DNA of 64,000 nucleotides from Candidatus Micrarchaeia archaeon (GTDB taxonomy: Archaea; Micrarchaeota; Micrarchaeia; Burarchaeales; JACRGF01), in assembly GCA_038890815.1 (NCBI GenBank), contig JAWAFC010000002.1:41067-105066 (forward strand), in the 5' to 3' direction. The first letter of the stretch is position 1, and every line of letters begins with the position of its first letter. Of the stretch, positions 28,677 through 59,335 are shown piece after piece. Made by a program: the position numbers and the translations under genes. The notes below the pieces were generated by a model. The model saw only the letters and a program-made list of their open reading frames with translations. It was not told where the DNA came from and searched no databases.

Positions 28677-28688
28677 GTCATCACCCAT

Positions 28689-29645: not shown

Positions 29646-29646
29646 C

Positions 29647-34791: not shown

Positions 34792-34827
34792 ACATGCTTT
34801 TTAAAATCTCGCACCTATCTTCATTCG

Positions 34828-36087: not shown

Positions 36088-36088
36088 G

Positions 36089-40233: not shown

Positions 40234-40261
40234 ACCATTTCATACTTTGAAAGAAATACTT

Positions 40262-41631: not shown

Positions 41632-42003
41632 ATGTCTGAGCGAGACAATCTCCCTATGGCCGAGCTGCTCAGGAGAATAAGAAATTTCCTTGCCGAGCAA
41701 TGGTGGAGGTTTCTCATCGGCATTTCCTTCCTCACCCTCATCAACTTCATCCTGCTCGTGCTGACCGCCAGCGATAAGCTCAAGGCGCTTACGGGCGTGC
41801 GCTTCACTGCCGAGGTGGTGCTGCTTCTCGTTCCGCTCGCCATCATTGCGGTGTGGCTGTGGGGGCTCATTCTCGAGAAGTACATCAAATTCCCACAGCA
41901 GCAGGAGAGGGAGGCCTGGAAGAGAAGCCCCATCTGGCAGGAGACCCATCGCAAGCTCGATGAGATACTGGCCAGGCTTGCCAGGCTGGAGAGAAAGCGA
42001 TGA
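41632..42003 (+). CDS. Small (123 aa) two-helix membrane protein, hypothetical, leading the nucleotide-sugar operon
   Basis: ATG at 41632 with an A/T box (gaaatatttt) ~35 nt upstream. Its stop overlaps (ATGA) the start of the UDP-xylose synthase gene. Confidence 0.4.
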   Translation: MSERDNLPMAELLRRIRNFLAEQWWRFLIGISFLTLINFILLVLTASDKLKALTGVRFTAEVVLLLVPLAIIAVWLWGLILEKYIKFPQQQEREAWKRSPIWQETHRKLDEILARLARLERKR

Positions 42004-42920: not shown

Positions 42921-43849
42921 TGGCGAGAATACTCATCACTGGCGGGGCTGGCTTTATTGGCAGCAATCTCGCGCACGTGCTGTGTAAAAAGAACGATGTC
43001 GTTGTGCTTGATGATTTCTCCACCGGGAGGAGGGAAAACCTTGAGGGCGCTGACATCGAGCTCGTTGTGGGAAGCGTGTGCGATCTAAATGCCGTCAGGC
43101 GCGCCTGCCAGGGCGTAGATTTCGTGCTACACCAGGCTGCCCTTCCCAGCGTGCCACGTTCGGTGACGGACCCGCTCGCGACCAATGCAGCAAACGTCAC
43201 AGGCACCCTGAATGTGCTCATCGCAGCGCGCGATGCCGGCGTTAAGCGCATAGTGTATGCCTCCTCCTCAGCCGTTTATGGTGAGCAGAAGGCGAGAAGG
43301 AAAAGCGAGCGCCTTTCCCCTAATCCGATCTCCCCGTATGCCGCCAGCAAGCTTGCTGGCGAGCTTTATTGCAGAGTTTTTTTCCAGACCTACGGCCTCG
43401 AGACCGTGTGTCTGCGCTATTTCAATGTTTTTGGCCCGCGCCAGAATCCAACCGGCGAATATGCCGCGGTTGTTCCGAGGTTTATCAGCGCGCTACTGCG
43501 CGGCGTTCCCCCAGTGATTTACGGCGATGGCAGACAGTCGCGCGACTTCACATATGTGGACAATGTTGTGCAGGCCAACATCTTGGCTATGAAGGCAAAG
43601 GGCGCTGCAGGGAAAGTTTTTAACATCGCGTGTGGAAAAGCCTACAGCGTGCTCACCCTGCTTCACACGCTCGAAAAAATCATTGGGAAAAAATCCACTC
43701 CAAAATTCCTCCCTCCGAGACAGGGCGATATCCGCCACTCGCTGGCCGACATCGAGTTGGCGCGGCGCGTGCTCGGTTATAGACCGACAGTTGGCTTTGA
43801 GGAGGGCTTGAGAAAAACTGTTGCATGGTTTGAGGCGAGGGATGTCTGA
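42920..43849 (+). CDS. NAD-dependent nucleotide-sugar 4-epimerase (WbpP/Gne-like, SDR family)
   Basis: Start at MARILITGGAGFIGSNL, with SSSAVYG and the YAASKLAGE catalytic YxxxK. The track ORF start 42851 would overlap the previous gene. Confidence 0.7.
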   Translation: MARILITGGAGFIGSNLAHVLCKKNDVVVLDDFSTGRRENLEGADIELVVGSVCDLNAVRRACQGVDFVLHQAALPSVPRSVTDPLATNAANVTGTLNVLIAARDAGVKRIVYASSSAVYGEQKARRKSERLSPNPISPYAASKLAGELYCRVFFQTYGLETVCLRYFNVFGPRQNPTGEYAAVVPRFISALLRGVPPVIYGDGRQSRDFTYVDNVVQANILAMKAKGAAGKVFNIACGKAYSVLTLLHTLEKIIGKKSTPKFLPPRQGDIRHSLADIELARRVLGYRPTVGFEEGLRKTVAWFEARDV

Positions 43850-45184
43850 ATGAACTATGCAAGCCTCAGGAAAAAAATCAGCGAGAAGAGCGCGCTCGTG
43901 TGCGTGGTTGGCCAGGGCTACGTTGGTATTCACCTTTCGGTCGCTTTTGCGCGCGCCGGCTTCCGCACAACAGGCTTTGACATAAGCGAAAAGCGCATTG
44001 CCGAGCTGTCACGCTGTTATGACAGCGCCGGGGAAGTCGGCGAGGACACGCTCCGCGAGCTGCAGGCGAGCGGAAAGCTCGCCTTTACCACGAATCCAGC
44101 TTCCATCAGCGAGGCTGATTTTATCTTGCTCGCCCTCCCCAGCCTCCTCACAAAGAAAAAGGAGCCGGACCTATCAGCTATTCGCGCTGCAAGCGAAACT
44201 GTCGGAAAGCATATGAAGCGCGGCGCGGTTGTCGTGCTCGAGTCAAGCGTCTACCCTGGTGTGACTGAGGAAGAGGTTCTTCCGCGCCTGGAGGAGCTCT
44301 CTGGCATGAGAGCTGGCATCGATTTCTCTGTAGGCTATTCGCCGGAGCGTGTGAATCCGGGCGACCCAGAACATTCGTTAGAGAAAATTGTGAAGGTGGT
44401 TGCCGGCCTGGATGACGAGACGACCGATCTCCTTGCTTTTCTCTATGGCCACATAACAAAGGCTGGCACATTCAAGGCCAAAAACATCAAGACTGCCGAG
44501 GCTGCCAAAATCATCGAGAACATTCAGCGCGACCTCAACATTGCGCTCATGAATGAGTTCGCCATCATCTTTGAGCGCATGGGCCTTAGCATATGGGATG
44601 TGTTAGAGGTTGCGAAGACGAAATGGAACTTCATACCATTTAAGCCAGGCCTTGTGGGCGGTTATTGCGTACCCGTCAATCCCTATTACCTCGTATACAA
44701 GGCGCGAAGGCTCGGCTATCGCCCAAGAGTCATGCTTGCCGGCCGAAGCACGAACGACTCCATGCCAAAACACATTGTCAGTTTGACAGAGAAGGCGCTT
44801 GCGAGGGTGGGGAAAAAAACAAAGGGCTCGCGCGTGCTGGTGCTTGGCCTGAGCTTTAAGGAGAACGTACGTGATCCGAGGTTTTCCCCTGTCAAGGAGG
44901 TTATTAAGGGTCTGAAGAGAAAAGGCTGTGCTGTGCTCGCGCATGACCCCCTCCTCTTTAAGTTTGATGTGGAGAAGGAATTTGGAGTAAAAAATCTTGA
45001 TAATTTTGGGATGGCTAGTGGTGTGGATGCAATAATTCTTGCTACAGGTCACAACGAATTTAGGAAAATACCTCTGAGCGAGCTGAGGCGAATCTGCAAC
45101 GAAAAGCCTGTGTTGGTTGACACGAGGAATTTCTTCAGCGAAAAGGAAGGGGAATCGGCCGGATTCATAGTAGTGCGACTATAG
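43850..45184 (+). CDS. UDP-N-acetylhexosamine 6-dehydrogenase (WbpO/TviB/WecC-like nucleotide-sugar dehydrogenase)
   Basis: 444 aa. It has the N-terminal Rossmann VCVVGQGYVGIHLSVAFA, a catalytic-Cys region, and the C-terminal VLVLGLSFKENVRDPRFSP block typical of the UDP-Glc/GDP-Man dehydrogenase family. Confidence 0.7.
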   Translation: MNYASLRKKISEKSALVCVVGQGYVGIHLSVAFARAGFRTTGFDISEKRIAELSRCYDSAGEVGEDTLRELQASGKLAFTTNPASISEADFILLALPSLLTKKKEPDLSAIRAASETVGKHMKRGAVVVLESSVYPGVTEEEVLPRLEELSGMRAGIDFSVGYSPERVNPGDPEHSLEKIVKVVAGLDDETTDLLAFLYGHITKAGTFKAKNIKTAEAAKIIENIQRDLNIALMNEFAIIFERMGLSIWDVLEVAKTKWNFIPFKPGLVGGYCVPVNPYYLVYKARRLGYRPRVMLAGRSTNDSMPKHIVSLTEKALARVGKKTKGSRVLVLGLSFKENVRDPRFSPVKEVIKGLKRKGCAVLAHDPLLFKFDVEKEFGVKNLDNFGMASGVDAIILATGHNEFRKIPLSELRRICNEKPVLVDTRNFFSEKEGESAGFIVVRL

Positions 45185-45203
45185 GTCAAGCGCAATCCAT
45201 TGA

Positions 45204-47072
45204 CTAAAATTCAATTTTAAAGGCATCGCTCCATAGCTCAAGCTCAAGCAGCGCCCACAGCTTGTAGGAATACGCGGCCCTACCTTTCCTGTGCTCATTG
45301 AGCATCCTGAACACTTCGTCCTTGCTGAACAGTTTTGCGCATACTCTACCTTCTGCTATTTTTTGCTCAAGGAACTCGCCAACCTCTTTCTTGAACCATG
45401 GACCGAGCGGAATTCCGAACCCACGTTTTTTCCTTTCCAGAATCTCCAGCGGAAGCCACGGCTTAAGGGCGCGCTTGAACACATGTTTAGTCTCGAGCCC
45501 ACGGAGCTTAAGGTCGCTAGGAATTGTCGCGGCAAACTCAACAAACTCGTGATCGAGCAATGGTGCTCTCGCCTCAAGACTGTGCGCCATGCTCGTTCTG
45601 TCTACTTTTGCAAGAATATCATCGGGCAAATAGGTATTGAAATCTGCGTACATCATCTTGTCCAGTTGTGTCTTTGCATTGCGCTTTGCAAAACAGGCCG
45701 TAATCGATTTCTGGGACGCCGCCTTTTTTAAGCTTGCGAGCCTGCCCTCTTTATACAGCCTTTCTCTTTCCTCGTTGCGATAGAACGACACAAGCTCGGC
45801 ATATCTCTCCGGAAGTGGGAGTCGTGCGAGGGCTTCGAACTTCTCTGCGCGCTGCGCGAGCAGGTGCATCCCAACAAAAGAGAGTGCTTTTTTTGCGGCC
45901 GCCACGCCGATAGCTCTGAGTGGTTGTGGGATTTTTGCATATCCTCTAAGCAACATATCAATAACATACCTATCATAGCCAGCGAAATTCTCATCGCCAC
46001 CATCCCCAGACAACACAACCGTCACATAGCGTCTCGCAAACTCTGAGACCATATAAGTCGGAACTGCACTTGCATCTGCGAAAGGCTCGTCTAAGTACCA
46101 TGCAATTTTTGGAAGATTTTTTATCACGTCTTTTGGATAGAGAATCTTCTCATAATGCTTTGTCCCTAGATGCTCGCTTACCTCTCTTGCGAAAGAGAGT
46201 TCGCTGTAGTCACTTTCCTCGAATCCGATGGTGAAGGTCTTGACATCCTCCGTAGCAACTTTCGTCATCGCAGCGACAACCGCGCTGGAATCTATCCCTC
46301 CCGAAAGAAAGGCGCCGAGCGGAACATCGCTTATAAGGCGCATGCTCACGCTCTCTTTGAGCCTCGAAATAATTTCATTCTCCCAAGCCTCCATACTCAT
46401 CTTCAGGGGTCTGTACCATATATCCCAATATCTATGCAACTCCATCCCTTTTTTTGTCACCAATGCATAATGTGCTGCCTGAAGTTTCTTGGCACCTAAA
46501 AAAATCGTTCTCGGCGCTGGAATATACTGCAGTGCTAAGAACTCGTCGAGCGCGCGCCAATCAATAACCTTACTGATCACGCCACTTTCACTCAGCGCCT
46601 TAAGCTCGGATGCAAAATAAAAAACTCCATCGCGCCACGAATAATAAAGTGGCTTTTTCCCTAATCTATCTCTAGCCAAAAAGAGCATCTTTCTCTTTGC
46701 GTCCCACAGTGCGAATGCAAACATCCCACGCAGACGGGACAGGCAGGCTGTCCCCCACTCCTCATATGCATGAACAATTGTCTCTGTATCGCTCTTTGTT
46801 GTAAAGCGATGTCCACGTAGTTCAAGCTCTTTACGGAGTTGTTGGTAATTGTATATCTCCCCATTGAAAACGATATGGACATCCCCATCCTCATTGCTCT
46901 GTGGTTGATGGCCAGTCTTAAGATCTATAACACTTAGCCTACGCATGCCAAGCGCAACGTTTCGCTCAGCAAATATACCCCAGTCGTCTGGCCCACGGTG
47001 ACGTAAGAGCGCTAGCATACGCTTCAGAATGTTTGCGTCGCCAGGACCCAGAAAACCCGCGATGCCACACAC
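45204..47072 (-). CDS. asnB: Asparagine synthetase-like glutamine amidotransferase (AsnB/WbpS-type), paralogue 1
   Basis: 622 aa. The N-terminal MCGIAGFLG has Cys2 as the Ntn nucleophile. The central ...SGGIDSS... PP-loop ATP-pyrophosphatase motif is LSGGIDSSAVVA. Confidence 0.8.
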   Translation of the reverse strand: MCGIAGFLGPGDANILKRMLALLRHRGPDDWGIFAERNVALGMRRLSVIDLKTGHQPQSNEDGDVHIVFNGEIYNYQQLRKELELRGHRFTTKSDTETIVHAYEEWGTACLSRLRGMFAFALWDAKRKMLFLARDRLGKKPLYYSWRDGVFYFASELKALSESGVISKVIDWRALDEFLALQYIPAPRTIFLGAKKLQAAHYALVTKKGMELHRYWDIWYRPLKMSMEAWENEIISRLKESVSMRLISDVPLGAFLSGGIDSSAVVAAMTKVATEDVKTFTIGFEESDYSELSFAREVSEHLGTKHYEKILYPKDVIKNLPKIAWYLDEPFADASAVPTYMVSEFARRYVTVVLSGDGGDENFAGYDRYVIDMLLRGYAKIPQPLRAIGVAAAKKALSFVGMHLLAQRAEKFEALARLPLPERYAELVSFYRNEERERLYKEGRLASLKKAASQKSITACFAKRNAKTQLDKMMYADFNTYLPDDILAKVDRTSMAHSLEARAPLLDHEFVEFAATIPSDLKLRGLETKHVFKRALKPWLPLEILERKKRGFGIPLGPWFKKEVGEFLEQKIAEGRVCAKLFSKDEVFRMLNEHRKGRAAYSYKLWALLELELWSDAFKIEF

Positions 47073-47081
47073 ACAAAACCC

Positions 47082-48032
47082 TCAACCATTCTCCCTAAAC
47101 CATCTCACAAACTTCTTGATACCTTCATCAATTGACGTACGCGGCTCATATCCAAGCATCCGTCGCGCTTTCGAGATGTCCGCATACGTTATTGGAACAT
47201 CACCGGGCTGAGGAGGAAGATGCGTGATCTTTGCTTTTTTCCCAACATTTTTTTCTATGAGCGTAATAAGCTCGTTGAGCGAAACAGTTCGTGAGCCACC
47301 TAAGTTAAATATCTCGAAACTGAATGGCTTTTCGAGTGCAGCGAGTATTCCCTGTACGATGTCATCTATGTAGGTATAGTCTCTTTTCATGCTACCGTCC
47401 CCAAAAACTGGAATCTCTTTTCCTTCGCTGATGAGGCGAACGAACTTGTGGATAGCCAAATCTGGCCTCTGGCGCGGGCCATAAACTGTGAAAAGGCGTA
47501 GCACTGTCACAGGTATGCCATACAGATGGCTGTAGGTGAAACAGAACAGTTCTGCCGCGCGCTTGCTTGCAGCATACGGTGAGATGGGCTGGGCTATGGG
47601 ATCTTCCTCACTGAACGGCACTTTGTTGTTTATGCCGTACACGCTGCTGGAGGAGCCGAAAATGAATGTTTTGAGTTTCGCGTTTTTGCATGCCTCAAGC
47701 AAGCTGATGGTTCCATTCACGTTTACATCCGCATATTCGAGTGGCCTTTCTAGCGAAGGGCGCACACCTGCCTTCGCTGCGAGGTGGATGACTGCTTCCG
47801 GTTTTGCCTGCGCGACAAGACTCTTCATTCTTTTTGTATCGCGAATGTCAGCCCGGACTAGTTTGAAAAGTCTGTTTTTCTTAAGCGCAGCGATGTTTCT
47901 TTCTTTTATTCTGCGGTTATAGAGGAAGGAATCAAAGTTGTCTACTCCTATGACGTTGTTTCCTCTACTAACCAGCGCCTCACACACATGCGAGCCGATG
48001 AAGCCTGCTGCACCAGTAACTAAAATCCTCAT
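47082..48032 (-). CDS. NAD-dependent epimerase/dehydratase (UDP-glucuronate 4-epimerase-like SDR)
   Basis: MRILVTGAAGFIGSHV with the YAASKRAAE YxxxK catalytic motif. Confidence 0.7.
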   Translation of the reverse strand: MRILVTGAAGFIGSHVCEALVSRGNNVIGVDNFDSFLYNRRIKERNIAALKKNRLFKLVRADIRDTKRMKSLVAQAKPEAVIHLAAKAGVRPSLERPLEYADVNVNGTISLLEACKNAKLKTFIFGSSSSVYGINNKVPFSEEDPIAQPISPYAASKRAAELFCFTYSHLYGIPVTVLRLFTVYGPRQRPDLAIHKFVRLISEGKEIPVFGDGSMKRDYTYIDDIVQGILAALEKPFSFEIFNLGGSRTVSLNELITLIEKNVGKKAKITHLPPQPGDVPITYADISKARRMLGYEPRTSIDEGIKKFVRWFRENG

Positions 48033-48060
48033 GAGAAAATTTTGGCGATGAAATTAAAAA

Positions 48061-49014
48061 CTATCCTCTTCCGATGTCAGACCGTCTTCCAAAAACGAAC
48101 ATAAGTATCCCAATGCAGAAAAAGACCCCCTGCAGGAGTTTGAGCGCCAGCGCCGGAATATACTCCCAGTCTCTTCTTTTTAATGCCAGCAGGGCAAACC
48201 AAAGCGCGATGATGTCGAATGGAAGCGAGAGCAGCGCGAGCAATGGATGCGAAAATACTGTGAAAGCTACCAATGCGGCGAACGATACTAACAAGCCAGG
48301 CAGTCGGACGAACTCCAGCCTTCTTGTCTTTATCATGTAAATCGGTGCAGTCCTGCCATACCACAGCGCGCTCTTGACGAATTCACTAAATGATTCTGGC
48401 ACATTAGAGTACTGAATTGCCCTGCGCTCCAAGACCTCAATTAAACCCTTTTTCTTACAATATGCTTTCAGCCTTTCTCTGAGCTCCATGTCTTCGCCCA
48501 CCCCCAATTTTGCAAACCCACCGACATCGAAAAACACCGTTCGGCGTATCGCGCCGGCTGCAGACATCGTCCCATCAAAAGGTCCTGCAAACGATGGGTA
48601 ATGAAAATATTGCTGCTTAAGGTAAAGCCTCTCAAACCAAGTATGCACGACAAACTGGTAACGCGTCATGACACCAGCTACACGTGGATCTTTGAAATGT
48701 CTCAATACACGAAAGAAGTAAGCTCTGTTGTATCCATCAAAGTCGGCGTCACAAAAAGTAAGAAAAGGGGCATTTGTGGCCCTCGCACCCTGATTTCGTG
48801 CGCCCGCTGGGCCGGTCTTTTCTTTTTGGTGCAGTACTTTACAGCCAAACTTTCTTGCAACTGTAACTGTACCATCGGTGCTTCCACCATCAACTACGAT
48901 GATCTCCTTGTCCGGATACGGATTTTTTGTCAGATTGTACAATAGCTTCTCGAGTTTCTTTTCCTCATTAAGTGCTGGGATGATTATTGCAACTTTCCCA
49001 AAACTCTTTTTCAC
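48061..49014 (-). CDS. Family-2 glycosyltransferase with C-terminal TM helices (Dpm1/AglJ-like)
   Basis: The N-terminus VAIIIPALNEEKKLEKLL...IIVVDGGSTDGT...DADF has the GT2 DxD context. Two or three C-terminal hydrophobic helices follow. Confidence 0.65.
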   Translation of the reverse strand: MKKSFGKVAIIIPALNEEKKLEKLLYNLTKNPYPDKEIIVVDGGSTDGTVTVARKFGCKVLHQKEKTGPAGARNQGARATNAPFLTFCDADFDGYNRAYFFRVLRHFKDPRVAGVMTRYQFVVHTWFERLYLKQQYFHYPSFAGPFDGTMSAAGAIRRTVFFDVGGFAKLGVGEDMELRERLKAYCKKKGLIEVLERRAIQYSNVPESFSEFVKSALWYGRTAPIYMIKTRRLEFVRLPGLLVSFAALVAFTVFSHPLLALLSLPFDIIALWFALLALKRRDWEYIPALALKLLQGVFFCIGILMFVFGRRSDIGRG

Positions 49015-50177
49015 TCAATCAACTCTCTATACAGCTCATGATGCTTTTTTGCAGTCATGCGAATATCATGATGTTTTCTCGCATAAGCAAATGCTCTCGT
49101 TCCGATTTTTCTATTGAGTTTGGTATCTTCAAGCAGCATGCGGGTGGTCTCAATCAATTTATTGAAATCTCCTTTTGCATGAAAACCGATTTTCTCCTTG
49201 CACAAGACCTCATCCGGGTCAACATTTAGCGAAACAACGGGAGTTTTCCTCAGCCAAGCCTGAATAAACGTATTGGGAAAACCAGCGCTATCGCTTGTAT
49301 CGACAAGCACACTTGCTCTGGCAATAATGGCGTTAACTTTTTCTAAAGATTGAAATGGAAGTATTTCGACATTTTCCGTTTTCTTAGCGAGCTCGAGCGT
49401 TTTCGCGAAAATGTTGTAAGTCTTTCCCATTATATCTTTCTCCTGTATTGCTCCGACCATGACAAACTTATAATGTGGGAATTTTTGCGCGAGCTCGATA
49501 AACTGCATTGGAAATTTATAGTCAGCAGTCCTCCCTACCCACACTGCAAACGGAGGATCGGATTTTTTTGGGAGACTTTTCGGTACCGGGTGGCCAGAAG
49601 GAATGATACGAATATCCGCATTAGGCATGCATTGAGCCATTGCTTTGCGGAGGTATTCTGCAGTAGCAATAATTACATTGGCGTTTTTGAGCCCATAAAG
49701 ATAAAGTCTTTTTTTAATTGTATTTCTGAAAAACCCCCTCCACATATTTCCAGACAGCGTACAGTCATCGATGTGCGCGATGGAGAAGACAAAAGGTCTG
49801 GCATTCTTCTTTGCATGATGCGCGAAATAACCCGTTGCGATGTTGCTCCCCCTCTGGTGATAAATGTCCGCTTTAAAGGAGTTGAGCACGCGCGTGAAGA
49901 AAGGGTGAGAATAAGTAAGAAAGGAATTGAGCGCGAAGAAGGGAGCCGCTTCCACCAAATCCCATAGCGAGCGCTTGAAAGTCCTCACCTTGTGGAGTAT
50001 CTGTCCCTTCCTAACAATTGTTTCTGGCTGCCCCTCGTCATCAACCAAATAGTGTGTTTGCCAACCAAGCCTTTGTAACTCCTTCCCGATCAAGTAAAGC
50101 TGTATCTCAGCGCCCCCCACTCTTCTGCTCACGAGCGGATGACCCATTGTATAGTAGCAAACGCTTTTCCCGCTCAT
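49011..50177 (-). CDS. Family-4 (GT-B) glycosyltransferase
   Basis: 388 aa with a GT-B fold pattern and a C-terminal E-x7-E-like region. The ATGA overlap with the downstream GT2 gene indicates an operon. Confidence 0.6.
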   Translation of the reverse strand: MSGKSVCYYTMGHPLVSRRVGGAEIQLYLIGKELQRLGWQTHYLVDDEGQPETIVRKGQILHKVRTFKRSLWDLVEAAPFFALNSFLTYSHPFFTRVLNSFKADIYHQRGSNIATGYFAHHAKKNARPFVFSIAHIDDCTLSGNMWRGFFRNTIKKRLYLYGLKNANVIIATAEYLRKAMAQCMPNADIRIIPSGHPVPKSLPKKSDPPFAVWVGRTADYKFPMQFIELAQKFPHYKFVMVGAIQEKDIMGKTYNIFAKTLELAKKTENVEILPFQSLEKVNAIIARASVLVDTSDSAGFPNTFIQAWLRKTPVVSLNVDPDEVLCKEKIGFHAKGDFNKLIETTRMLLEDTKLNRKIGTRAFAYARKHHDIRMTAKKHHELYRELIE

Positions 50178-51856
50178 CTCTTGCTCACCATGATGTTTCC
50201 CATTACGAGATGTCTAAGCCCAGACCGCTCCATTGTGTAAAGCGCATCTGTAGGCGAGCACACCATCGGCTCACCATGGAGGTTGAAGCTCGTGTTCAGC
50301 ACGCCACCGATTCCTGTCTCTTTTTCAAAATATTCCAGTATCCTGTAGTAGTCAGGATTGCTCCAATTTTCGAGTATTTGTGGCCTGAGTGTGAAATCGG
50401 CGGGATGCATGGCCGCGACAAGCTCCTTGCGCGCGAGCGGCTTCGAGCGGAAGGCCATTATCATGTAAGGTGCAGGAATCTTTTTCGGATTGATAAGATA
50501 GTCATCTGCTCTTTCCGCGGACAGCGTGGGCGCAAATGGCATCCAAAAGTCCCTGCTCTTTATCTGCTCGTTGATGATGCGTACGGTCTCCCATGTGCTT
50601 GGGTTTGCGAGAATTGCCCGGTTCCCGAGACTCCGTGCACCCCATTCCATTCTGCCGGAGCAGCGTGCGACTATCTCGCCCTCAGCAAGTAGGCCCGCGA
50701 TTTCTTTGGCGATATTCTTACATCGTCTTACATCGTAGTTTTTCCCGAGACGCGCGAGTGCCTCCTTGATTTCTTTTTCGCCGAACTCCATCCCTAAGTA
50801 GAGGTCCTTTAGTGGTGTAGTAGGCGCGTCCTGTCCAGCCAATTCCTTGTAGGCGTAGAATACCGCACCGAAGGGCGTACTTTCGTCTCCGCATGATGGC
50901 AACGGGTAGAGTTCCTCCACTTCTGGAAGTTCGCTGATGAGCATGTTAGCCTTGACGTTCATGAAAACGCCACCTGAGAGAATAACACGCCTTACGCCTG
51001 TTTTTTTTACTGCAGCTCTCACCCACCTCACAAGCAGGTCTTCTGTCAGCCGCTGCACACTCGCTGCAATGTTATCGAACCTCTCGTGTTTGAGCATTTC
51101 ATCTAGATAGAAGAGCGAGCGCTGTGTGTTAAAAGCCGACTTGAACGAGAGCTCGTTCTCATCTAACCAAATCATGGGCTTAAACACCCTCTCATAAGTC
51201 TTTTTGTAATACTCTTTCGCATAGGGCGCGAGGCCCATGAGTTTGTACTCATGCTCGAGTGGCTTCATTCCCATATAGATTGTTGTCGCGGCGTACACAA
51301 GGCCAATTGAGGCCTCCAGCGGTGTTGCGGCGATCCTTCTGATTCTTCCCTCGCGCGCAATGTTGACCGTCGCGCACAGGCCATCTCCCTCGCCATCGAG
51401 CGTGAGCACGAGGGCTTCCTCGATTCCATCAGTCATGCCAAAATAGCCCGCATAGGCATGACAGGTATGGTGGTCTATGAAATGGATTTTACTCTCCGGA
51501 ACGCCAAGTCTTTTCAAGAGGATTTTTTTAACTGCCTTTCTGCCAGCCGCGCTCCTTCTTTTCCGAATAAAGTGAACAAGTGGGAGGGCAATGACGCGAA
51601 GAATCGGGTGGGCGTAGTCTATTGTTGCCCAAATGCTTCTTGCGGCGCTCGGCATGCCAAGTGCAACCCCACGTGCCTTTTCGTAGTCGGAATGATTTTC
51701 TGTCGAAACGACCGCAACCGCATCCAATTCTTCGCCCGTGATCCCCTCGCTTTCAAGAACCCATTTCCACGAATTTGCGGGTACTGCGTCCTCATTTTTC
51801 CTGCGCGTAAACCTTTCCTCGCTCACCGCCCTAACTATTTTTCCGTCTTTGAGCAA
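50174..51856 (-). CDS. NodU/CmcH-family carbamoyltransferase (COG2192). The annotated TTG start truncates a conserved N-terminus; an in-frame ATT at complement 51899-51901 may be the true start.
   Basis: ...LLKDGKIVRAVSEERFTRRKNEDAVP matches the family N-terminal block. The 14 codons upstream in-frame (IYILGIVFGHNSTVA) match the family consensus M-Y-I-L-G-I...H-D-S-A-A, with ATT in place of ATG. Confidence 0.7.
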   Translation of the reverse strand: MLKDGKIVRAVSEERFTRRKNEDAVPANSWKWVLESEGITGEELDAVAVVSTENHSDYEKARGVALGMPSAARSIWATIDYAHPILRVIALPLVHFIRKRRSAAGRKAVKKILLKRLGVPESKIHFIDHHTCHAYAGYFGMTDGIEEALVLTLDGEGDGLCATVNIAREGRIRRIAATPLEASIGLVYAATTIYMGMKPLEHEYKLMGLAPYAKEYYKKTYERVFKPMIWLDENELSFKSAFNTQRSLFYLDEMLKHERFDNIAASVQRLTEDLLVRWVRAAVKKTGVRRVILSGGVFMNVKANMLISELPEVEELYPLPSCGDESTPFGAVFYAYKELAGQDAPTTPLKDLYLGMEFGEKEIKEALARLGKNYDVRRCKNIAKEIAGLLAEGEIVARCSGRMEWGARSLGNRAILANPSTWETVRIINEQIKSRDFWMPFAPTLSAERADDYLINPKKIPAPYMIMAFRSKPLARKELVAAMHPADFTLRPQILENWSNPDYYRILEYFEKETGIGGVLNTSFNLHGEPMVCSPTDALYTMERSGLRHLVMGNIMVSKR

Positions 51857-51921
51857 AGCTACTGTGCTGTTGTGGCCGAAGACTATCCCTAAAATATAAA
51901 TAGTTCCACCCGGTACTTATT

Positions 51922-53097
51922 ATGTGTGCGAGGTTTAAAAAAATGATTCGCGTTTTTTTCAACCTGTCTCCGCGCCACAGGGTTCGCTTCCGCGAGACTG
52001 TCTGGCATCCACCTCCAGGAGTTATCTATGTGAACAAAATCCCTCCCACCTGGAAGGATACAAACATCAGCCCGGCAGATCCACTGCGAGAGCGTGCTAC
52101 AAATCTTTTGAAAAAAGTTATTGATATTTTCCGTATTCCGAACATCCGCCTCGCCCGTCCGAACCTCCCATGCGACCTTATCCATGCACCCGGCCAGCTT
52201 TTGCTCAATCGCCAGCAGTGGGTGACAGAGATTGACAACCCTGCGGTTCTCACTCTTTATAATCTCAACACGCTCTACTCACGAATAGGTCAGTTTTGGA
52301 TAAAGCGATTTCTCCGCTCACGCCACTGCGGAGGGGTTATTGCTATTAGCCAGGCGGCAAAAAAAAGCCTTGCGAATGTTCTACGTGATGATGAAATAAA
52401 CTCAAAAACTTCTGTTGTTTATCCTTTCGTACGTCTCTCGCCCTTTAGGAAAAAGCCGAGCGAGCACATCCGTCTCCTGTATGTGAGCACTAGTTTCTTC
52501 CGCAAGGGGGCGCGCGAGCTCCTCAAGGCATTCGAGAGGCTTAACAAGATGTTCCCCAATAAGCTTTCGCTCACTCTTGTCACAAACGCCCCCAAGGAAT
52601 ACATCTCACGCTATTCACGTTTTCCCAACATCCGTCTCCTTCCCGCAAACATTCCGAAGGAAATTCTTTATCGCGACTTTTTTTCGGATGCCGACATTTT
52701 TGTTGTTCCGACTTACCAGGACAGCTTCGGCCTCGTCAATCTCGAGGCCATGAGCGCCGGCCTGCCAGTTGTTGCTACTGATCTTTTCGCACTACCCGAG
52801 ATGGTAGAAGACGGTAGAAACGGCTTCCTGCTACCGTGCCCCATACCTTATTTTAGGCCGGATTACACACCGAATCCTGCCGTATGGTCATTGAACTTGG
52901 AGGAGTACTGCAGCCGAAAGGAGTTTCCGGAAATAGTCAATGGGCTGATCGAAAAGTTGACCATACTCATTGAGGACGAAAAACTCAGGAGGCAAATGGG
53001 CGAACGCTCACTGAAAGCTGTTAAGGAAGGAAAGTTCAGCGAGAAAGTTCGCGCGGCCTCACTTATTCAAGCTTACCGCCGCGCGTTGGGTGAGTGA
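51922..53097 (+). CDS. Family-4 glycosyltransferase; start uncertain
   Basis: The C-terminal GT4 signature [39 protein letters not shown] (E-x7-E) is present. The N-terminal ~35 aa of the track ORF may be a 5' over-extension. Confidence 0.65.
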
Positions 53098-53098
53098 A

Positions 53099-55033
53099 TT
53101 GTGCGGAATAGGTGGAATCTACTGTTTCAATGGTGGAAAAGTACGAAAGGCCGCTCTTAAAAGTATGATCTCGGTCCTGCGCCACAGGGGGCCGAACGGC
53201 TGTGGTGTGAGGGTCTTCGACTCGGCAGGCCTTGCTCATACACGCCTAAGCATTATCGACCTTTCGAAGCGCGCCACACAGCCAATGAGCAATGAGGATG
53301 GCAACTTATGGATCGTGCTTAATGGCGAAGTATACAACTACCGTAAGCTCAGAAGCGAGCTCACGCAAAAAGGCCACCGTTTCAGGAGCGCGAGCGACAC
53401 TGAGGTCATTCTCCATCTTTATGAAGAAGAGGGCGAGCGTTGCTTGTCACGCCTACGCGGAATGTTCGCATTCGCGCTTTACGACAGAAGAAAGAACGAA
53501 ATGTTTCTCGCACGCGACAGGATAGGCGAGAAGCCTCTCGTATATGGGATTTTCAATAACGTTCTATATTTCGCCTCGGAGATTCCCGCCATTCTCAATG
53601 CTTCCGGCTGTCCTAGAGAAATCGACCTTGAGGCTCTCCATCATTACTTCTCTGATTCTTGGTATCATCCCCCCGCGCCCTACACGATCTTTAAGGGAAT
53701 TAGGAAGCTGCCAGCTGGTTGCTTCGCGCGCGCCACAAGAGAGGGACTCTGCATCAGGAAATATTGGTCTCTCGACTTTGGCAGAAAAAGCAAGGCAAGT
53801 GAGGCCGAGTTGTGCAGAAGCCTGCGCAATAGGTTGCGCGAGGCAGTGAGATTGCAACTCGAGAGCGATGTGCCAGTTGGCATCATGCTGTCTGGTGGCA
53901 TCGACTCTTCCTCCATAGTGCTGGCCATGCGCGAGCTTGGGGTGCAGACCATCCGCTCTTTTGCTGTTGGCTTCAGCAAGGATGACGAGGAGCTACAGCG
54001 TGCGCGCCTCGCAGCAAAATTTTTTGGCACAAAACATACCGAGCTCATAATAAAGGCCGATGATATCTCACGCTTGCCAGAGATGATCGCGCTTTATGGA
54101 GAGCCCATCAGTCTGTTGCCTGCGTTCTACACGTTCGAGCTCTCAAGGCTCATGAATCGACATGTCACGGTTGTGCTCACTGGCAACGGCGGCGATGAGC
54201 TCTTCGGAGGATACGACTACTATAACAGAGTGCGCCTACTCTCTATTCTCTCACGTATTGATTTCCTTTTACCGCATTCTCTGTTTGGACTAGCCGGCAG
54301 AGCGCTCGGCGCGCTCTTTACAAAAGGCTTTCTTTCCGAAATCGCATTGGGCTTGCGTATTCTTGGTAGCAGTTTTTTCAAGAGAAAGGGCTTGTCGGCT
54401 CGCGAGGATGGCGAGCGGCTCCGCCGTTCTCTCTACTCCCCGGCAGTGCGTGAAAAACTGGCACGCTCGGATACTGGAAGACTGCTCGATGACGCTTTCG
54501 CCGAACCGCAGTGCGGAAGCTACTTTGATCGTGTGCTATACGCAGACCTGACCGTAGGCAACTCGCACTCCGTAGTGGTCTCAAGCGACGTGGGCGGCAT
54601 GGCACACGCGCTTGAGATGCGCTCCCCTTTTCTCGACCCAGGGCTTCTTGAGTTCTCCTCCATCCTGCCTGAACGAATGAAAGTTCGTTCTCTTTTTGAC
54701 CCCTCACAGAACAAGTACATCCTCAAGAAAGCTATTGAGAGCGATGTGCCCGCGGAGATCGTATCTGCAAAAAAAATGGGCTTCGGGTTCAACATTCCTT
54801 GGCGTGCCTGGATGAAAACGAAGTGGAGGCGCACCATACATAGCCTGTTGTTTGATGGCTCGCTTGCCCGCTCGGGTCTGTTCGACATGAACTTCGTTAA
54901 AAAAATTTTTGAAGAGAATTCAAGCGGAAGAGCAGACCACTCTAGACTACTTTTTGCTCTAGTTGTCTTCTCGATCTGGTACAAGCTCTTTATTGAGCGC
55001 GTTTCTGTGAAAAGACTAAAACTTAAATTCTGA
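53099..55033 (+). CDS. asnB: Asparagine synthetase-like glutamine amidotransferase, paralogue 2 (TTG start placing Cys at position 2)
   Basis: From TTG 53099 the product begins (M)CGIGGIYCF. The track start at GTG 53090 would place the catalytic Cys at position 5, which is incompatible with Ntn amidotransferases. The PP-loop is MLSGGIDSSSIV. Confidence 0.75.
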   Translation: MCGIGGIYCFNGGKVRKAALKSMISVLRHRGPNGCGVRVFDSAGLAHTRLSIIDLSKRATQPMSNEDGNLWIVLNGEVYNYRKLRSELTQKGHRFRSASDTEVILHLYEEEGERCLSRLRGMFAFALYDRRKNEMFLARDRIGEKPLVYGIFNNVLYFASEIPAILNASGCPREIDLEALHHYFSDSWYHPPAPYTIFKGIRKLPAGCFARATREGLCIRKYWSLDFGRKSKASEAELCRSLRNRLREAVRLQLESDVPVGIMLSGGIDSSSIVLAMRELGVQTIRSFAVGFSKDDEELQRARLAAKFFGTKHTELIIKADDISRLPEMIALYGEPISLLPAFYTFELSRLMNRHVTVVLTGNGGDELFGGYDYYNRVRLLSILSRIDFLLPHSLFGLAGRALGALFTKGFLSEIALGLRILGSSFFKRKGLSAREDGERLRRSLYSPAVREKLARSDTGRLLDDAFAEPQCGSYFDRVLYADLTVGNSHSVVVSSDVGGMAHALEMRSPFLDPGLLEFSSILPERMKVRSLFDPSQNKYILKKAIESDVPAEIVSAKKMGFGFNIPWRAWMKTKWRRTIHSLLFDGSLARSGLFDMNFVKKIFEENSSGRADHSRLLFALVVFSIWYKLFIERVSVKRLKLKF

Positions 55034-56528
55034 TTGCACCTCTCGCTATTTTCAGTAGTTCGGCGGGTTCCACTGCCCTGAAAAGAAAAAGTAGCAGGCC
55101 GTAGGCAAGTGTGGCGACCAGACCAAAAAACAGTAATATCCTCCAGCTGGATTCGAAACCGGCGAGAAGCTGTGAGAGCACGAGCAGGCAGATGAGAGAG
55201 GCCACGGCTGGCTTGAGCAGAAGTTGTACGTCGAACGGAATGTCCGCGTGCCTGAGCGCGTAGGCTGTAATAACTCCTGCAGACAGGAACTTCATTGCCA
55301 GTATGGATGCCACTATTCCCATTAGGCCGAACACCGGAATAAGCGTTACATAGAGGAGGACCTGAAGAACGGTGGTAGCGAAGTTTATTCGTGCGGATAT
55401 GTCAATCCTTCCTGTGCCTGTCAGTAGCATGTCTGCAGCCTGAAAGAGTGTGAAGGCAATTGTCAGAGGCGACAGATAGACAAGAAGCGTGCTGGCCTCC
55501 GCATACTGAATCCCATAAACTAATTTCACAAAGCCCGGTGCGAGTAGGGCTATGCCCAATACTGCCCAAAAAGAAAAGGCGAGCCCATACTGTAGTGTCT
55601 TTTTGTACATTACCGCTTTCTTCTCAGGTTTCCTTGCATAAGAAGAAACAAAAACAGCCGAGCTGAACGGGAACACTGAGTTAGGGAAGTTTGCCCACGA
55701 AAAGGCTGTTCGAAAAATGCCAATAGCAGAGGCAGGCAAGAAGAGCGCCGTTATCGGCGCGTCGATAAACATAGAAATAAGATAGTTAAACGTAACAAGC
55801 GTGCCATAAGCGAAATATCTCCTTACAACCTTCGGCATACCCTCAATCGTTGTCTCGAAATTCGGGAAAAGAACCCTTCTCTTTGCATAAAGCAGCGCAA
55901 TCGCGAGTGTCAGGCTCGCTGCAGCTGACAGCACGAAAGCCCAGAGCACGCTCACAAAACCCCCAAATGCAAAGAAAAAGATGAACGGAAGGATTGCCCT
56001 TAGCCCAAAGTGTGTCGCGGTTGTCAGGAAAGTGTAAAACGATTTTCTGAGAGCCGAGAACACCGTAGCATAAAACCCAGACAATGAGTAGAGTGCAGTA
56101 AGAAGAGCGCTCACCTTAATTGGTTCCGAAAGGGACGGATTCTTGAGGCCGAGGGCTATCCATGGCGCTAGGAGAAAAAGGAGTGCTGCAGCGAGCGCCG
56201 ACAGCATCCACTTAGATTTCTCGAAGAACCTGAAGTACGCCCACGCACGCTCGCCGTGTCTCTGGGGGATAAAGTAGAGGGCTGCCATTCCGATGCCGAA
56301 CTCGGTGAAGAACAACCACAGGCTCGAGACTGCTATCACTAGGGAGAGCAGGCCGAACCCCTCGCTTCCCAACAGCGTAGGAAAAAACCACACGTATACG
56401 AGGCTTGTCACTACTGTGGAGTACTGCGCTGCGACCGCGAAAACGTTCTCACGCGCCACTACCAAATACCATGGGGGTTTTTTCTTCATTGCCTCACGGG
56501 CATCTTCCACACATGAAAATGAACCCAT
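55023..56528 (-). CDS. Wzx-like oligosaccharide flippase (MOP/polysaccharide biosynthesis protein family)
   Basis: Start at MGSFSCVEDA (complement 56526-56528), 2 nt after the stop of the upstream gene. About 14 TM helices, with the family architecture. Confidence 0.65.
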   Translation of the reverse strand: MGSFSCVEDAREAMKKKPPWYLVVARENVFAVAAQYSTVVTSLVYVWFFPTLLGSEGFGLLSLVIAVSSLWLFFTEFGIGMAALYFIPQRHGERAWAYFRFFEKSKWMLSALAAALLFLLAPWIALGLKNPSLSEPIKVSALLTALYSLSGFYATVFSALRKSFYTFLTTATHFGLRAILPFIFFFAFGGFVSVLWAFVLSAAASLTLAIALLYAKRRVLFPNFETTIEGMPKVVRRYFAYGTLVTFNYLISMFIDAPITALFLPASAIGIFRTAFSWANFPNSVFPFSSAVFVSSYARKPEKKAVMYKKTLQYGLAFSFWAVLGIALLAPGFVKLVYGIQYAEASTLLVYLSPLTIAFTLFQAADMLLTGTGRIDISARINFATTVLQVLLYVTLIPVFGLMGIVASILAMKFLSAGVITAYALRHADIPFDVQLLLKPAVASLICLLVLSQLLAGFESSWRILLFFGLVATLAYGLLLFLFRAVEPAELLKIARGAIRI

Positions 56529-56530
56529 CA

Positions 56531-57229
56531 CTATTTTTTCCCTACATACAAAAGCTCGGAGCCGTTTCCTGGGAGAAAAGGGCCTCCCGGAAGCAAGTAG
56601 CTCAACATGAACATGCGGTAACTGAAAGATTCGCACACAACTGTTTTGAACCCGCTTATCTCAAGTGCTTGCCTAAGCGACAGTCTTGTAAACGGCTTTA
56701 CGTGCGTGGGGTCCGACCAAAAGCTGAATCCCACTTTTTCAATGTCCGGAGTCCGAATGATGATTATGCCGTCCCTTTTTAGTCGGCTGTGGAGACCTTT
56801 AAGCACTGAAACAGGGTCATCCAGATGCTCCAGAACATGGTTTAGGATTAGCACGTCCACAGAATTTTTTGCCAAAGGAATCTTTTTCCGCACGTCAGCC
56901 TGACAGAAAACAATCCCTTTTGCTTCTAGTTTTTTTCTGTATGTCGCATCGATATCCACCGCAATCTTTTCCTTTATCCTCCGGTCCATCAGAGAGAGCG
57001 CCCAGCCATCGCCAGGCCCAATCTCCACAACCGACAGGCCTGGTTTGTTGCAGTACCGGTCAATAAAAAATTTCAGAAATACCGCGTAGTGGTTTTTTTG
57101 TCCAATTTGTGAGACAGCCTTCCTTTCCAACAAGTAGGTAATCCACCTGGAAAGCAATCCCTTCTTTTCCCGATATCTCTCTGCGACCTTTAGGTATCCC
57201 ATTGAATTCGCCTTACCTCCTTTTTTCAT
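56531..57229 (-). CDS. Class I SAM-dependent methyltransferase
   Basis: VVEIGPGDGWALSLM glycine-rich SAM motif I, followed by DVLILNHVLEHL (motif II/III). Confidence 0.6.
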   Translation of the reverse strand: MKKGGKANSMGYLKVAERYREKKGLLSRWITYLLERKAVSQIGQKNHYAVFLKFFIDRYCNKPGLSVVEIGPGDGWALSLMDRRIKEKIAVDIDATYRKKLEAKGIVFCQADVRKKIPLAKNSVDVLILNHVLEHLDDPVSVLKGLHSRLKRDGIIIIRTPDIEKVGFSFWSDPTHVKPFTRLSLRQALEISGFKTVVCESFSYRMFMLSYLLPGGPFLPGNGSELLYVGKK

Positions 57230-57959
57230 GGCGCGTCCCGCCAGGAGGAAGTACCCCCTCCATCATCCTGTTCGCCGCGCGGTAGCTCTCTATTGTGCCT
57301 ATGTCGAGCCAGTAGTCTGGGTCATACACGAAGCCAGCGAGCCTGCCTTCCCTTGCGAGCTTTGGGAATACCACCTCCTCCACCTTTGCTTTCCTGTGCG
57401 GGAGGAGCTCGAGCACACTCTTGCTAAGGACATAATAGCCAGCATTGGCTAGGTTGCTGGGCGCTTCCTCCTTCCTCGGCTTCTCCACAAACTTCGTGAC
57501 TAAGTCGTCCTTAAGCTCGGCAATGCCGAACCTGCTTACCTCATGCCACGGAACCCTGAACAGCGCTATTGTAGCGAGCTTTTCTTTTTTCCTATGGAAT
57601 TTCACCATCTCTCCAATGTCTATATTCGTAACATTGTCCCCGTACGCCACGACAATATCCTCGTTTATCTCCTTTTCCACGCACACAGCCCTCAGGTCGC
57701 CACCTGTTTCCCATCCAAGCGTCTGTACTGTCTCGATCACGATGTTGTCACGGGGAGTGTGCCTGAGATAATTTTCCAGCGTCTCGCGCATGTGCGACAC
57801 TGCTACATAAATTGTTTTGATTTCCCTACAGGTAAGGAGGTTATCGATAACGTAGTCGATGACTGGTTTCCCTCCAACGGGCAGAAGTGGTTTTGGGATA
57901 GCATATGTCAGTGGGCGAAGCCTCGTCCCTTTCCCTGCAGCCAATATTACAGCCTTCAT
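57213..57959 (-). CDS. Sugar-phosphate nucleotidyltransferase (glucose-1-phosphate thymidylyl/uridylyl-transferase-like)
   Basis: Start at MKAVILAAGKGTRLRPLTYAIPKPLLPVGGKPVIDYVIDNL. The track ORF start at 58043 would overlap the upstream ugd gene. Confidence 0.7.
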   Translation of the reverse strand: MKAVILAAGKGTRLRPLTYAIPKPLLPVGGKPVIDYVIDNLLTCREIKTIYVAVSHMRETLENYLRHTPRDNIVIETVQTLGWETGGDLRAVCVEKEINEDIVVAYGDNVTNIDIGEMVKFHRKKEKLATIALFRVPWHEVSRFGIAELKDDLVTKFVEKPRKEEAPSNLANAGYYVLSKSVLELLPHRKAKVEEVVFPKLAREGRLAGFVYDPDYWLDIGTIESYRAANRMMEGVLPPGGTRHEKRR

Positions 57960-57963
57960 CTTT

Positions 57964-59280
57964 TCACCCAACGCTTTTCCTCCCAATCCCCCTGTAGCAA
58001 AGACCGGCAAGTGCTTTTCTTGGTAGCACGTCTCTTCCTTCAATCACGACCGCTGGCTTGCTGGCCATAAGCGAAAAGTCCTTTTGAGAAAGCCGCTTAT
58101 ATTCTTTCCATGCTGTAAGGATGATGCATGCATCAGAACCCTTCAACGCAGCATGCGCGCTTTCGGCATATGCAATTTTTTCACCGAAGGTATTTTTCGC
58201 GTTCTCCATTGCTTTTGGATCATGCGCTATGACCGAAGCGCCCTCCTTTAGCAGCGCAGGGATCACTTTCAGAGATGGCGCCTCCCTCATGTCGTCAGTA
58301 TTCTCTTTGAAGGCAAGGCCTAGCACCGCGATGCGCTTCCCGCGCAAAGTCCCGAGCGCTTCCTTTGCCAGCTCGATTGTTTTGAGCGGCTGCTGTGCAT
58401 TCACATCCAGCACGGCCTGGATTATCCTTGGCTCAACGCCTACGCTCCTGGCTGTGTGCGCAAGTGAGGCAACATCCTTTGGAAAGCAGCTTCCGCCGAA
58501 GCCAACGCCAGCATTCAAGAAGGCCCGTCCGATCCTCCTGTCGAGACCCATGCCATCAGCAATATCATATACATCAATTCCGAGCTTCTGGCAGATGTTC
58601 GCAATCTCATTGATAAAGGAAATTTTTGTGGCAAGAAAGGCGTTGCTTGCGTACTTTATCATCTCGGCAGTCCGCCAGTCAGTCTGCAGGAAAGGACACT
58701 TGAAACGTGTGTAGAGCTTGCGCATCGCAGTGACATCCATTTTATTCTGCGCTCCGACGACAATCCTGTCCGGGTTGAAGAAATCGAAAACTGCATTTCC
58801 TTCTCTGAGAAACTCCGGGTTGGCACACGCGCCGAAGCCATCACCGAATTTTTTTCCGCTCGTCTTCTCAATTATCCCAACAATTTTTTCTGTAGTGCCC
58901 GGTGGGACTGTGCTCTTGACAACAACTACCGGGCGTTTTTTGCTTTCCGCGAGCGCCCTGCCAATGTTCGAGGCTGCCTCCTCAACAAACCGCAGGTCTG
59001 TCGAGCCATCCGCTCTGCTCGGTGTGCCTACGCAGATGAAGACTATCTCCGACTCAGCAATCGCGCTTTTTCCATTGGTCGTTGCCGATAGCTTTTTTCT
59101 CTTAACATTTTTTCTGATCAGCACGTCGAGGCCAGGCTCGAATACGGGCGCGCGTCCGCTGTTGATGGCATTTACCTTTTCTTTGTCAACATCAATGCAC
59201 GTTACGTGGTTGCCCAGCTCGGCTAGTCCAGCAGCCTGCACAGAGCCGACATAGCCAACGCCGACAACAGCGATTCTCAT
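57964..59280 (-). CDS. ugd: UDP-glucose 6-dehydrogenase
   Basis: MRIAVVGVGYVGSV Rossmann start, the catalytic Cys region GFGGSCFPKD, and the C-terminal VLGLAFKENTDDMREAPS block. Confidence 0.8.
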   Translation of the reverse strand: MRIAVVGVGYVGSVQAAGLAELGNHVTCIDVDKEKVNAINSGRAPVFEPGLDVLIRKNVKRKKLSATTNGKSAIAESEIVFICVGTPSRADGSTDLRFVEEAASNIGRALAESKKRPVVVVKSTVPPGTTEKIVGIIEKTSGKKFGDGFGACANPEFLREGNAVFDFFNPDRIVVGAQNKMDVTAMRKLYTRFKCPFLQTDWRTAEMIKYASNAFLATKISFINEIANICQKLGIDVYDIADGMGLDRRIGRAFLNAGVGFGGSCFPKDVASLAHTARSVGVEPRIIQAVLDVNAQQPLKTIELAKEALGTLRGKRIAVLGLAFKENTDDMREAPSLKVIPALLKEGASVIAHDPKAMENAKNTFGEKIAYAESAHAALKGSDACIILTAWKEYKRLSQKDFSLMASKPAVVIEGRDVLPRKALAGLCYRGIGRKSVG

Positions 59281-59335
59281 ATAATGTCTTTGGCATGTAA
59301 TTATTAATGTACATTTCTACTAAGCTAAGAAAAGC

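Follow-up and report, generated by a model that had tools for sequence, protein, structure and literature searches.

A block of lower GC content occupies the right end of the 64,000-nucleotide stretch of Candidatus Micrarchaeia (DPANN) DNA analyzed here (the window; contig JAWAFC010000002.1, assembly GCA_038890815.1) and, judged by its gene families, is the glycan-specific part of the archaeal N-glycosylation (agl) locus of this metagenome-assembled genome (MAG). The assignment to N-glycosylation was made because a gene for the oligosaccharyltransferase STT3/AglB lies 43 bp past the last low-GC gene. Between UXS-, TviC- and TviB-like genes on one side and aglB on the other, the block holds 15 genes, packed closely and arranged in four modules on alternating strands (Table 1). 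We lean toward the reading that it is a replacement-type variable glycan island, laterally exchanged as a whole cluster or module by module from a related background of ~50% GC. Its composition makes a horizontal origin plausible, and the donor, if there was one, was probably a related rather than a distant lineage. Homologous recombination in the conserved flanks would replace the whole cluster or single modules, and the incoming DNA would have evolved at ~50% GC within the Micrarchaeota or other DPANN archaea. The feature is an instance of a well-known kind. Here GC content and GC at third codon positions (GC3) point to a foreign source, but neither synteny nor codon dialect nor the homologue searches do.

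Two Logan contigs of run SRR27730023 match the window at 100% identity and extend it by 7.9 kb to the left (contig L017) and by 9.1 kb to the right (contig L001, sharing window positions 52252 to 64000, or 11,749 bp), giving 81 kb of contiguous sequence in total. Coordinates above 64000 are window-equivalent positions on the L001 extension. Within these 81 kb, the block (~44.8 to 64.05 kb, 19.25 kb) has a GC content of 49.7% versus 58.7% for the 61.8 kb of flanking sequence, and no host stretch of equal length falls below 56.7%. Unbiased segmentation by Jensen-Shannon divergence (JSD) divided the whole window most strongly at 44,370 (N × JSD = 327 bits). GC3 ranged from 0.44 to 0.61 in all 15 block genes (0.539 overall) compared to 0.710 ± 0.058 in 45 flanking genes (Mann-Whitney p = 1.5e-8), and GC at first and second codon positions was lower as well (0.472 versus 0.528, p = 1e-5). 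Composition is clearly not uniform along the locus, with a deficit of about 9 GC points overall and about 17 points at third codon positions.

This drop is real and far beyond chance, although longer and milder than first described. The sequence-only reading had placed a segment of ~35 to 50% GC at positions 45185 to 57230, as a 12-kb cassette embedded between sugar genes of host GC. The drop itself was confirmed (58.6% at 1 to 45184 against 49.0% in that interval) but its magnitude was not: no 1-kb window goes below 43.2%, and values under 40% occur only in spots of at most 300 bp. Around 49.0 kb, GC is 38.5% over 200 bp and 43.4% over 1 kb, and a 300-bp spot at 22.3 kb, outside the block, is equally low (37%). 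The proposed right boundary at 57,230 had to be moved, as positions 57231 to 64000 still have 51.1% GC and recovery comes only at 64.04 to 64.08 kb on L001. What was described as a 12-kb cassette is actually a block of ~19 kb that reaches aglB, and both Ugd and AsnB-3, thought to be near host GC, belong to it. The uxs, wbpP-like and wbpO-like genes, placed in the same category, turned out to be intermediate (Table 1). On the other hand, the list of gene families (three AsnB, an SDR epimerase, GT2, GT4s, a carbamoyltransferase, a Wzx-like flippase and a methyltransferase) was borne out by Pfam.

Both edges are sharp and step-like at silent sites. On the left, GC3 stays between 0.60 and 0.71 until ~44.8 kb and then falls to 0.47 to 0.49 in the last ~370 nucleotides of the TviB-like gene (Fisher p = 0.012); the boundary lies at ~44.4 to 45.2 kb, next to the change-point in total GC. 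On the right, the step coincides with the 43-bp spacer, with a GC3 of ~0.50 throughout SDR304 and of 0.63 to 0.72 in AglB from its 3' end, which rules out a gradual compositional gradient into aglB at a resolution of 100 codons. No tRNA gene was found at the block edges (the nearest is at 30.9 kb), nor any integrase, transposase or insertion sequence (IS) element within the block, where every open reading frame (ORF) carries a glycan-related Pfam domain. Intergenic gaps are all of 65 nucleotides or less and therefore leave no room for IS or integrase genes. Direct or inverted repeats of at least 14 nucleotides linking the two edges were also absent, the sole match being a 13-mer, consistent with chance. 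Of the marks of a classical integrative genomic island, namely an integrase or recombinase, insertion at a tRNA or tmRNA gene and flanking direct repeats, none is present.

The surroundings of the block are conserved at great phylogenetic distance. The order T2SSE ATPase, DUF192, UPPS (cis-prenyltransferase), GGR (geranylgeranyl reductase), AglB, SDR304, a variable slot, Ugd, SDR and NTP-transferase is shared by six distant Micrarchaeota contigs (L002 to L007; 46 to 60% GC), its part from aglB to the NTP-transferase being conserved in L002, L003, L005, L006 and L007, a comparison made at phylum or class rather than strain depth, with relatives at 37 to 67% protein identity. SDR304 adjoins aglB in five of them (L002, L003, L005, L006 and L007; 54 to 58% identity), and synteny with aglB extends to Ugd and NTP-transferase C in L002, L005, L006 and L007 (53 to 57% and 65 to 67% identity, respectively). 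The slot between SDR304 and Ugd holds MT-2, AsnB-3 and GT4-c in the window, LPG_synthase_TM, Wzx and GT2 genes in L002, and in L005 and L007 either a PMT_2 GT-C with a GT2 or an unknown gene, while it is empty in L006. Since each lineage has different genes in the slot, its content turns over on a conserved scaffold. Three features of replacement islands are present at this depth of comparison: a fixed site with conserved neighbors, genes that differ between genomes but serve an equivalent function, and no hallmarks of mobile elements. Atypical composition, sharp edges, glycan-related content and lineage-variable genes together form the classical picture of a glycan-diversifying locus under exchange. 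Replacement islands, including an archaeal S-layer cluster, are described as exchanged by homologous recombination in conserved flanks (PMC4033161).

As for gene content, families were assigned with Pfam and NCBIfam (Logan gene calls were used on L001), and all functional statements hold at the family level. The locus has what is expected of an agl cluster: a linked STT3, an initiating PF00953 transferase, one GT2, three GT4 and a PF01943 Wzx-like protein. AglB and AsnB-1 correspond to NCBI accessions MEM4389318.1 and MEM4389303.1, a spacing of 15 that agrees with the 15 block genes counted before AglB. Module 1 is the part of the block with the lowest GC (GC3 z-scores versus the core of -2.2 to -4.0), and its genes overlap or sit at most 28 nucleotides apart; GT4-b, the first gene of module 2, adjoins the carbamoyltransferase gene divergently. 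L001, whose positions 11831 to 20873 correspond to 64.08 to 73.1 kb, continues past aglB with genes for a methyltransferase, GGR, UPPS, DUF192, an ATPase of the type-IV-pilus type, TBP and ribosomal proteins.

From these families, Ugd, the TviB-like dehydrogenase and the 4-epimerases would make UDP-uronic acids, and the GT2 and the three GT4 would assemble a lipid-linked oligosaccharide. The three AsnB-type amidotransferases, the carbamoyltransferase and the two methyltransferases would decorate it, the Wzx-like flippase would move it across the membrane and AglB would transfer it to surface proteins. The lipid-linked oligosaccharide so produced would be rich in (N-acetyl)hexuronic acids, with amidated, carbamoylated or methylated residues among them, and from the three AsnB together with the NodU-family carbamoyltransferase, uronamide and carbamoyl groups are predicted on an archaeal N-glycan. 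A UDP-GlcNAc 6-dehydrogenase and a 4-epimerase are also the basis of the sugar pathways of Pseudomonas aeruginosa O6 (WbpO/WbpP/WbpS) and of the Salmonella Vi antigen (TviB/TviC). The block shares with them, at the family level only, the combination of these two enzymes with AsnB-type amidotransferases, and the likeness suggests amidated N-acetyl-hexosaminuronic acids. In NCBIfam, TviB (369 bits against a cut-off of 592) and TviC (256 against 760) were the best matches, both below their equivalog cut-offs, the best model for all three AsnB was an XrtA/PEP-CTERM amidotransferase, also below cut-off, and all agl equivalog models fell short of their cut-offs (for the AglM-like Ugd, 479 bits against 670).

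Table 1. Genes of the N-glycosylation locus and of its surroundings, in window coordinates (positions above 64000 are equivalent positions on L001).
Part	Feature	Position	Strand	GC (%)	GC3	Basis or remark
Host-GC side	HMG-CoA reductase	34786-36087				Pfam
Host-GC side	556-aa polytopic membrane protein	36089-37759	+			no Pfam match
Host-GC side	AglH-like GlcNAc-1-P transferase (PF00953)	37756-38772				Pfam
Host-GC side	two NTP-transferases	38769-40233				Pfam
Host-GC side	phosphohexomutase	40262-41620				Pfam
Left transition	UXS-like SDR	42000-42920	+	57.4	0.66	Pfam
Left transition	TviC/WbpP-like epimerase	42920-43849	+	56.0	0.63	Pfam, NCBIfam
Left transition	TviB/WbpO-like UDP-sugar 6-dehydrogenase	43850-45184	+	52.5	0.61	Pfam, NCBIfam
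Module 1	AsnB-1 amidotransferase	45204-47072	-	48.5		Pfam, NCBIfam
Module 1	UDP-glucuronate 4-epimerase-like SDR	47082-48032	-	47.6		Pfam, NCBIfam
Module 1	GT2	48061-49014	-	47.1		Pfam
Module 1	GT4-a	49011-50177	-	44.4		Pfam
Module 1	NodU/CmcH-family carbamoyltransferase	50174-51856	-	51.5		Pfam, NCBIfam
Module 2	GT4-b	51922/51943-53097	+	49.7		Pfam, Logan gene calls
Module 2	AsnB-2 amidotransferase	53090/53165-55033	+	51.5		Pfam, Logan gene calls
Module 3	Wzx-like flippase (PF01943)	55023-56528	-	50.2		Pfam
Module 3	methyltransferase MT-1	56531-57229	-	46.4		Pfam
Module 3	NTP-transferase C	57213-57971	-	51.7		Pfam
Module 3	AglM-like UDP-glucose 6-dehydrogenase Ugd	57964-59280	-	51.9	0.57	Pfam, NCBIfam
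Module 4	GT4-c	59348-60517	+	54.1		Pfam
Module 4	AsnB-3	60505-62262	+	52.0	0.57	Pfam
Module 4	methyltransferase MT-2	62252-63124	+	44.1		Pfam
Module 4	SDR304	63124-window end (gene ends at 64038)	+	51.3		Pfam
Outside window	aglB/STT3	64082-66760	-			PF02516, 892 aa; NCBI name "STT3 domain-containing protein"

Several results weigh against import. No sister strain or species was found in the collections searched (5.8 billion proteins and genome contigs), where the next-closest AglB is 43 to 44% identical. No donor-like homologue appeared for the five block genes tested (AsnB-1, carbamoyltransferase, 4-epimerase, GT4-a and MT-2). Their best identities (49%, 53%, 60%, none and 51%, respectively) are no closer than those of core genes (44% for AglB and up to 59% for T2SSE). 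For SDR304, Ugd and NTP-transferase C, a distance-based comparison, of low power in such an isolated lineage, gave no incongruence (distance ratios of 0.94 to 1.08 against 1.05 to 1.16 for core genes, the genome of the window being equidistant from all relatives). The ancestral positions of these three genes count against their simple acquisition, and the genes are at least as similar to their relatives (53 to 67% identity) as the flanking core genes are (37 to 59%). The GC-normalized dinucleotide signature is only marginally atypical (delta* of 63.5 against a maximum of 61.9 for host chunks). Codon choices that do not depend on GC3 are host-like (block versus host, Arg AGR 0.48 and 0.46, Ser AGY 0.42 and 0.44, Ile ATA 0.24 and 0.27), and the choice between A- and T-ending codons is indistinguishable from the core; all of these choices range widely among relatives. 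Finally, the silent sites of SDR304 imply a background of 48% GC and its protein-level composition a host-like 58%, which is the reverse of what the amelioration of an import would produce.

Most of these observations, namely the three genes in ancestral syntenic positions with core-like divergence, the host-like codon dialect apart from GC3, the contrast within SDR304, the barely atypical dinucleotide signature and the lack of donor-like homologues, speak at the same time for the main alternative, which we regard as possible but on the unlikely side. It holds that the locus is native and vertically inherited, and that, being hypervariable, it rarely finds a homologous partner and escapes the GC-biased gene conversion or selection that holds the recombining core at ~59% GC. 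AT-biased mutation would then lower GC, silent sites first, and the edges would fall where homology between strains ends. Published comparisons in which recombining genes are richer in GC (PMC4450053) and core genomes GC-richer than accessory genomes (PMC5303225) fit such a process. A similar dip was seen beside aglB in L010 (positions 1 to 21749; DPANN-like, 39% GC), where GC is 0.44 to 0.48 at the 3' end of STT3 and 0.33 to 0.42 over the glycan cluster downstream of it (with genes for a sulfotransferase, two carbamoyltransferases and a Wzx-like protein), against a baseline taken from 1.4 kb of aglB sequence, and small dips are present in L002 and L006. However, L003, L005 and L007 have no dip at the orthologous locus, so that it is not general. 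Orthologues in the relatives follow the GC of their own genomes (Ugd, 62.5% in L005 and 47% in L002), so neither these families nor, as a rule, the locus itself is low in GC by nature. Protein-level composition is shifted too, not just silent sites, as seen in the first and second codon positions and in K/(K+R) (0.48 in the block versus 0.37 in the host). The pooled block values (GC1 54.5, GC2 40.6, GC3 54.4) are near those expected at equilibrium in a genome of 50% GC (57.5, 40.2 and 52.0), which would need a very long-lasting regime, and no demonstrated case of GC-biased gene conversion is known from DPANN archaea. We consider it rather unlikely that the block was never imported and that an ancestral, aglB-anchored hypervariable locus decayed in GC in place through its exclusion from homologous recombination.

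By its codon positions, the block looks like DNA long adapted to ~50% GC rather than half-ameliorated. Calibrated with orthologues, SDR304, Ugd and NTP-transferase C imply a background of 48 to 51% (GC3) or 53 to 58% (first and second positions), compared to 52 to 60% and 60 to 67% for the adjacent core genes; that is, ~5 (GC3) to 8 points below the core, an estimate from few points with wide error. Exchange with a related ~50% GC background, the reading we prefer, is also in keeping with where the carbamoyltransferase and the 4-epimerase have their best homologues, namely in glycan clusters of DPANN-like contigs that are likewise linked to STT3. The carbamoyltransferase also has a GT4-b-like gene as its direct neighbor in L010 and at a distance of 2 kb in L012. 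The horizontally acquired glycan cassette of the sequence-only reading thus keeps in its favor the atypical composition, the sharp edges, the all-glycan content and the lineage-variable genes, but no mobility hallmark, donor-like homologue or GC-independent codon deviation came to its support.

A recent acquisition of a discrete cassette from a distant donor, such as a bacterium or the host archaeon of this episymbiont, is improbable. Taxonomy of the best matches is mixed, and Acidobacteriota, Omnitrophota and Verrucomicrobiae come as close as Micrarchaeota and other DPANN do. The best non-self homologues of AsnB-1 (46 to 49%) would favor such a donor, as the named top matches are mostly bacterial (Pyrinomonadaceae/Acidobacteriota, Abditibacteriales), and so would one bacterial cluster (Polarisedimenticolia, Verrucomicrobiae) 56% identical to the 4-epimerase, whose best non-self homologues are at 55 to 60%. 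Module 1 is in addition the most deviant part (GC of 44 to 48.5%, GC3 z-scores of -3.5 to -4.0). However, Micrarchaeota (48%) and Woesearchaeota (46%) homologues score equally well for AsnB-1 and, at 52%, are the best among the named matches for the carbamoyltransferase (50 to 53% for its best non-self homologues), and identities never exceed core-gene levels. For GT4-a no relative was found at all, and the best match of MT-2 (51%) is partial, on a 1.7-kb contig. The high share of AGR arginine codons equals that of the host, the block contains ancestral syntenic genes, and the integrase, IS element, tRNA or att-like repeat of such an insertion are missing.

An assembly or binning chimera, with a lower-GC fragment of another organism joined into the contig of what is a MAG, is highly improbable. 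In its favor are the MAG source itself and the fact that the Logan assembly of the same run breaks the region, though elsewhere (~15.9 and ~33.95 kb). Against it, the contig SRR27730023_78025 (46.8 kb), from an independent assembler, spans both junctions at 100% identity, the gene order over the right junction (aglB-SDR304...Ugd-NTP-transferase) is the same in five relatives, the genes are tightly packed with undisrupted edges, and the codon dialect matches the host.

Among known systems, bacterial O-antigen and capsule loci, such as those of Enterobacteriaceae, are low-GC mosaic, Wzx-dependent clusters between conserved flanks, through which they are exchanged. The block is likewise a low-GC mosaic, Wzx-dependent cluster at a conserved site, but its product presumably goes to protein asparagines via AglB on a dolichol-type carrier, whereas O-antigen goes to lipid A-core. 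The replacement "glycotype" islands, including the S-layer/cell-wall island of Haloquadratum walsbyi (PMC4033161, PMC4535781), also share a fixed site, variable glycan genes, a composition off the core and the lack of integrase or att hallmarks. Those islands were defined with strains of the same species, from islands that stay identical where the genomic background diverges and from peaks of synonymous change in border genes, while the block has been compared only with relatives at the protein identities given above. The agl clusters of Haloferax are variable, with recombination and xenologous displacement reported (PMC5867893), and have, as here, glycosyltransferases, sugar-modifying enzymes and a flippase adjacent to aglB. 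The block differs in belonging to another phylum (DPANN Micrarchaeia) and in its enzymes, among them three AsnB-type amidotransferases and a carbamoyltransferase. Within the DPANN, Candidatus Nanohalococcus occultus SVXNc has islands of 41.5 to 44% GC in a genome of 47.5%, one of them with glycosyltransferase and sugar-synthesis genes, that were read as horizontal (PMC10266531). Their prediction came from composition software, and neither a link to aglB nor synteny across the phylum was described for them, whereas the block has a larger GC deficit and ancestral anchor genes inside.

To the left of the transition genes, the super-locus continues at host GC (34786 to 41620; GC 53 to 61%, GC3 0.67 to 0.74). 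The 556-aa membrane protein encoded there gave no homologue by tblastn in loci L002, L003, L005, L006 and L007 and has no homology to the PMT_2-type GT-C slot genes of L005 and L007; it may be a lineage-specific glycosylation component. One of the two NTP-transferases (39478 to 40233, minus strand) carries an N-terminal CopG-type ribbon-helix-helix domain and may be a self-regulating sugar-nucleotidyltransferase. Its ORF overlaps a long upstream extension of the ORF of the next one (38769 to 39641).

Archaeal markers in the window include intron-bearing tRNAs, a lone 5S rRNA gene (33557 to 33670), HMG-CoA reductase, a FlaJ-like protein and the AglH-type phosphosugar transferase. A tRNA of 117 nucleotides at 14103 to 14219 (minus strand), matched by Rfam and missed by ARAGORN, presumably carries an intron, and a 90-nucleotide tRNA-Trp at 20494 to 20583 (plus strand) also looks intron-bearing. 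The breaks of the Logan assembly fall at a tRNA-Met gene (~15.87 kb) and directly behind the gene for 5S rRNA (~33.95 kb); the joins in the 15.9-to-33.9-kb interval are supported by the NCBI MAG contig alone, which is continuous there. Two patches of lower GC were seen in the host part. One (21875 to 23530) contains a hexapeptide acetyltransferase (GC 51%, GC3 0.59) and a DUF2666 protein (GC 54%, GC3 0.59), with a spacer of 37% GC between their convergent 3' ends (22.38 to 22.71 kb). The other (28113 to 30839) contains a peroxiredoxin (49.4%) and an ArsP-type permease (50.5%) amid genes of 58 to 62% GC, which makes the composition of the host part patchy as well.

Low-GC mosaic loci for surface glycans are well known in bacteria and haloarchaea, and the block adds a new instance in the deep-branching and poorly sampled Micrarchaeia. 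It also illustrates the limits of inference from composition only. If decay in place were the true explanation, the locus of this DPANN archaeon would offer a clean example from nature of GC maintenance that depends on recombination, and a warning that equating a low-GC glycan island with horizontal gene transfer can mislead. The conserved gene order of the Micrarchaeota ties the synthesis of the dolichol carrier (UPPS and GGR) and the oligosaccharyltransferase to a variable slot. In episymbiotic archaea, contact with host cells and viruses probably takes place at the surface glycan, and a glycan locus under diversification is therefore plausible.

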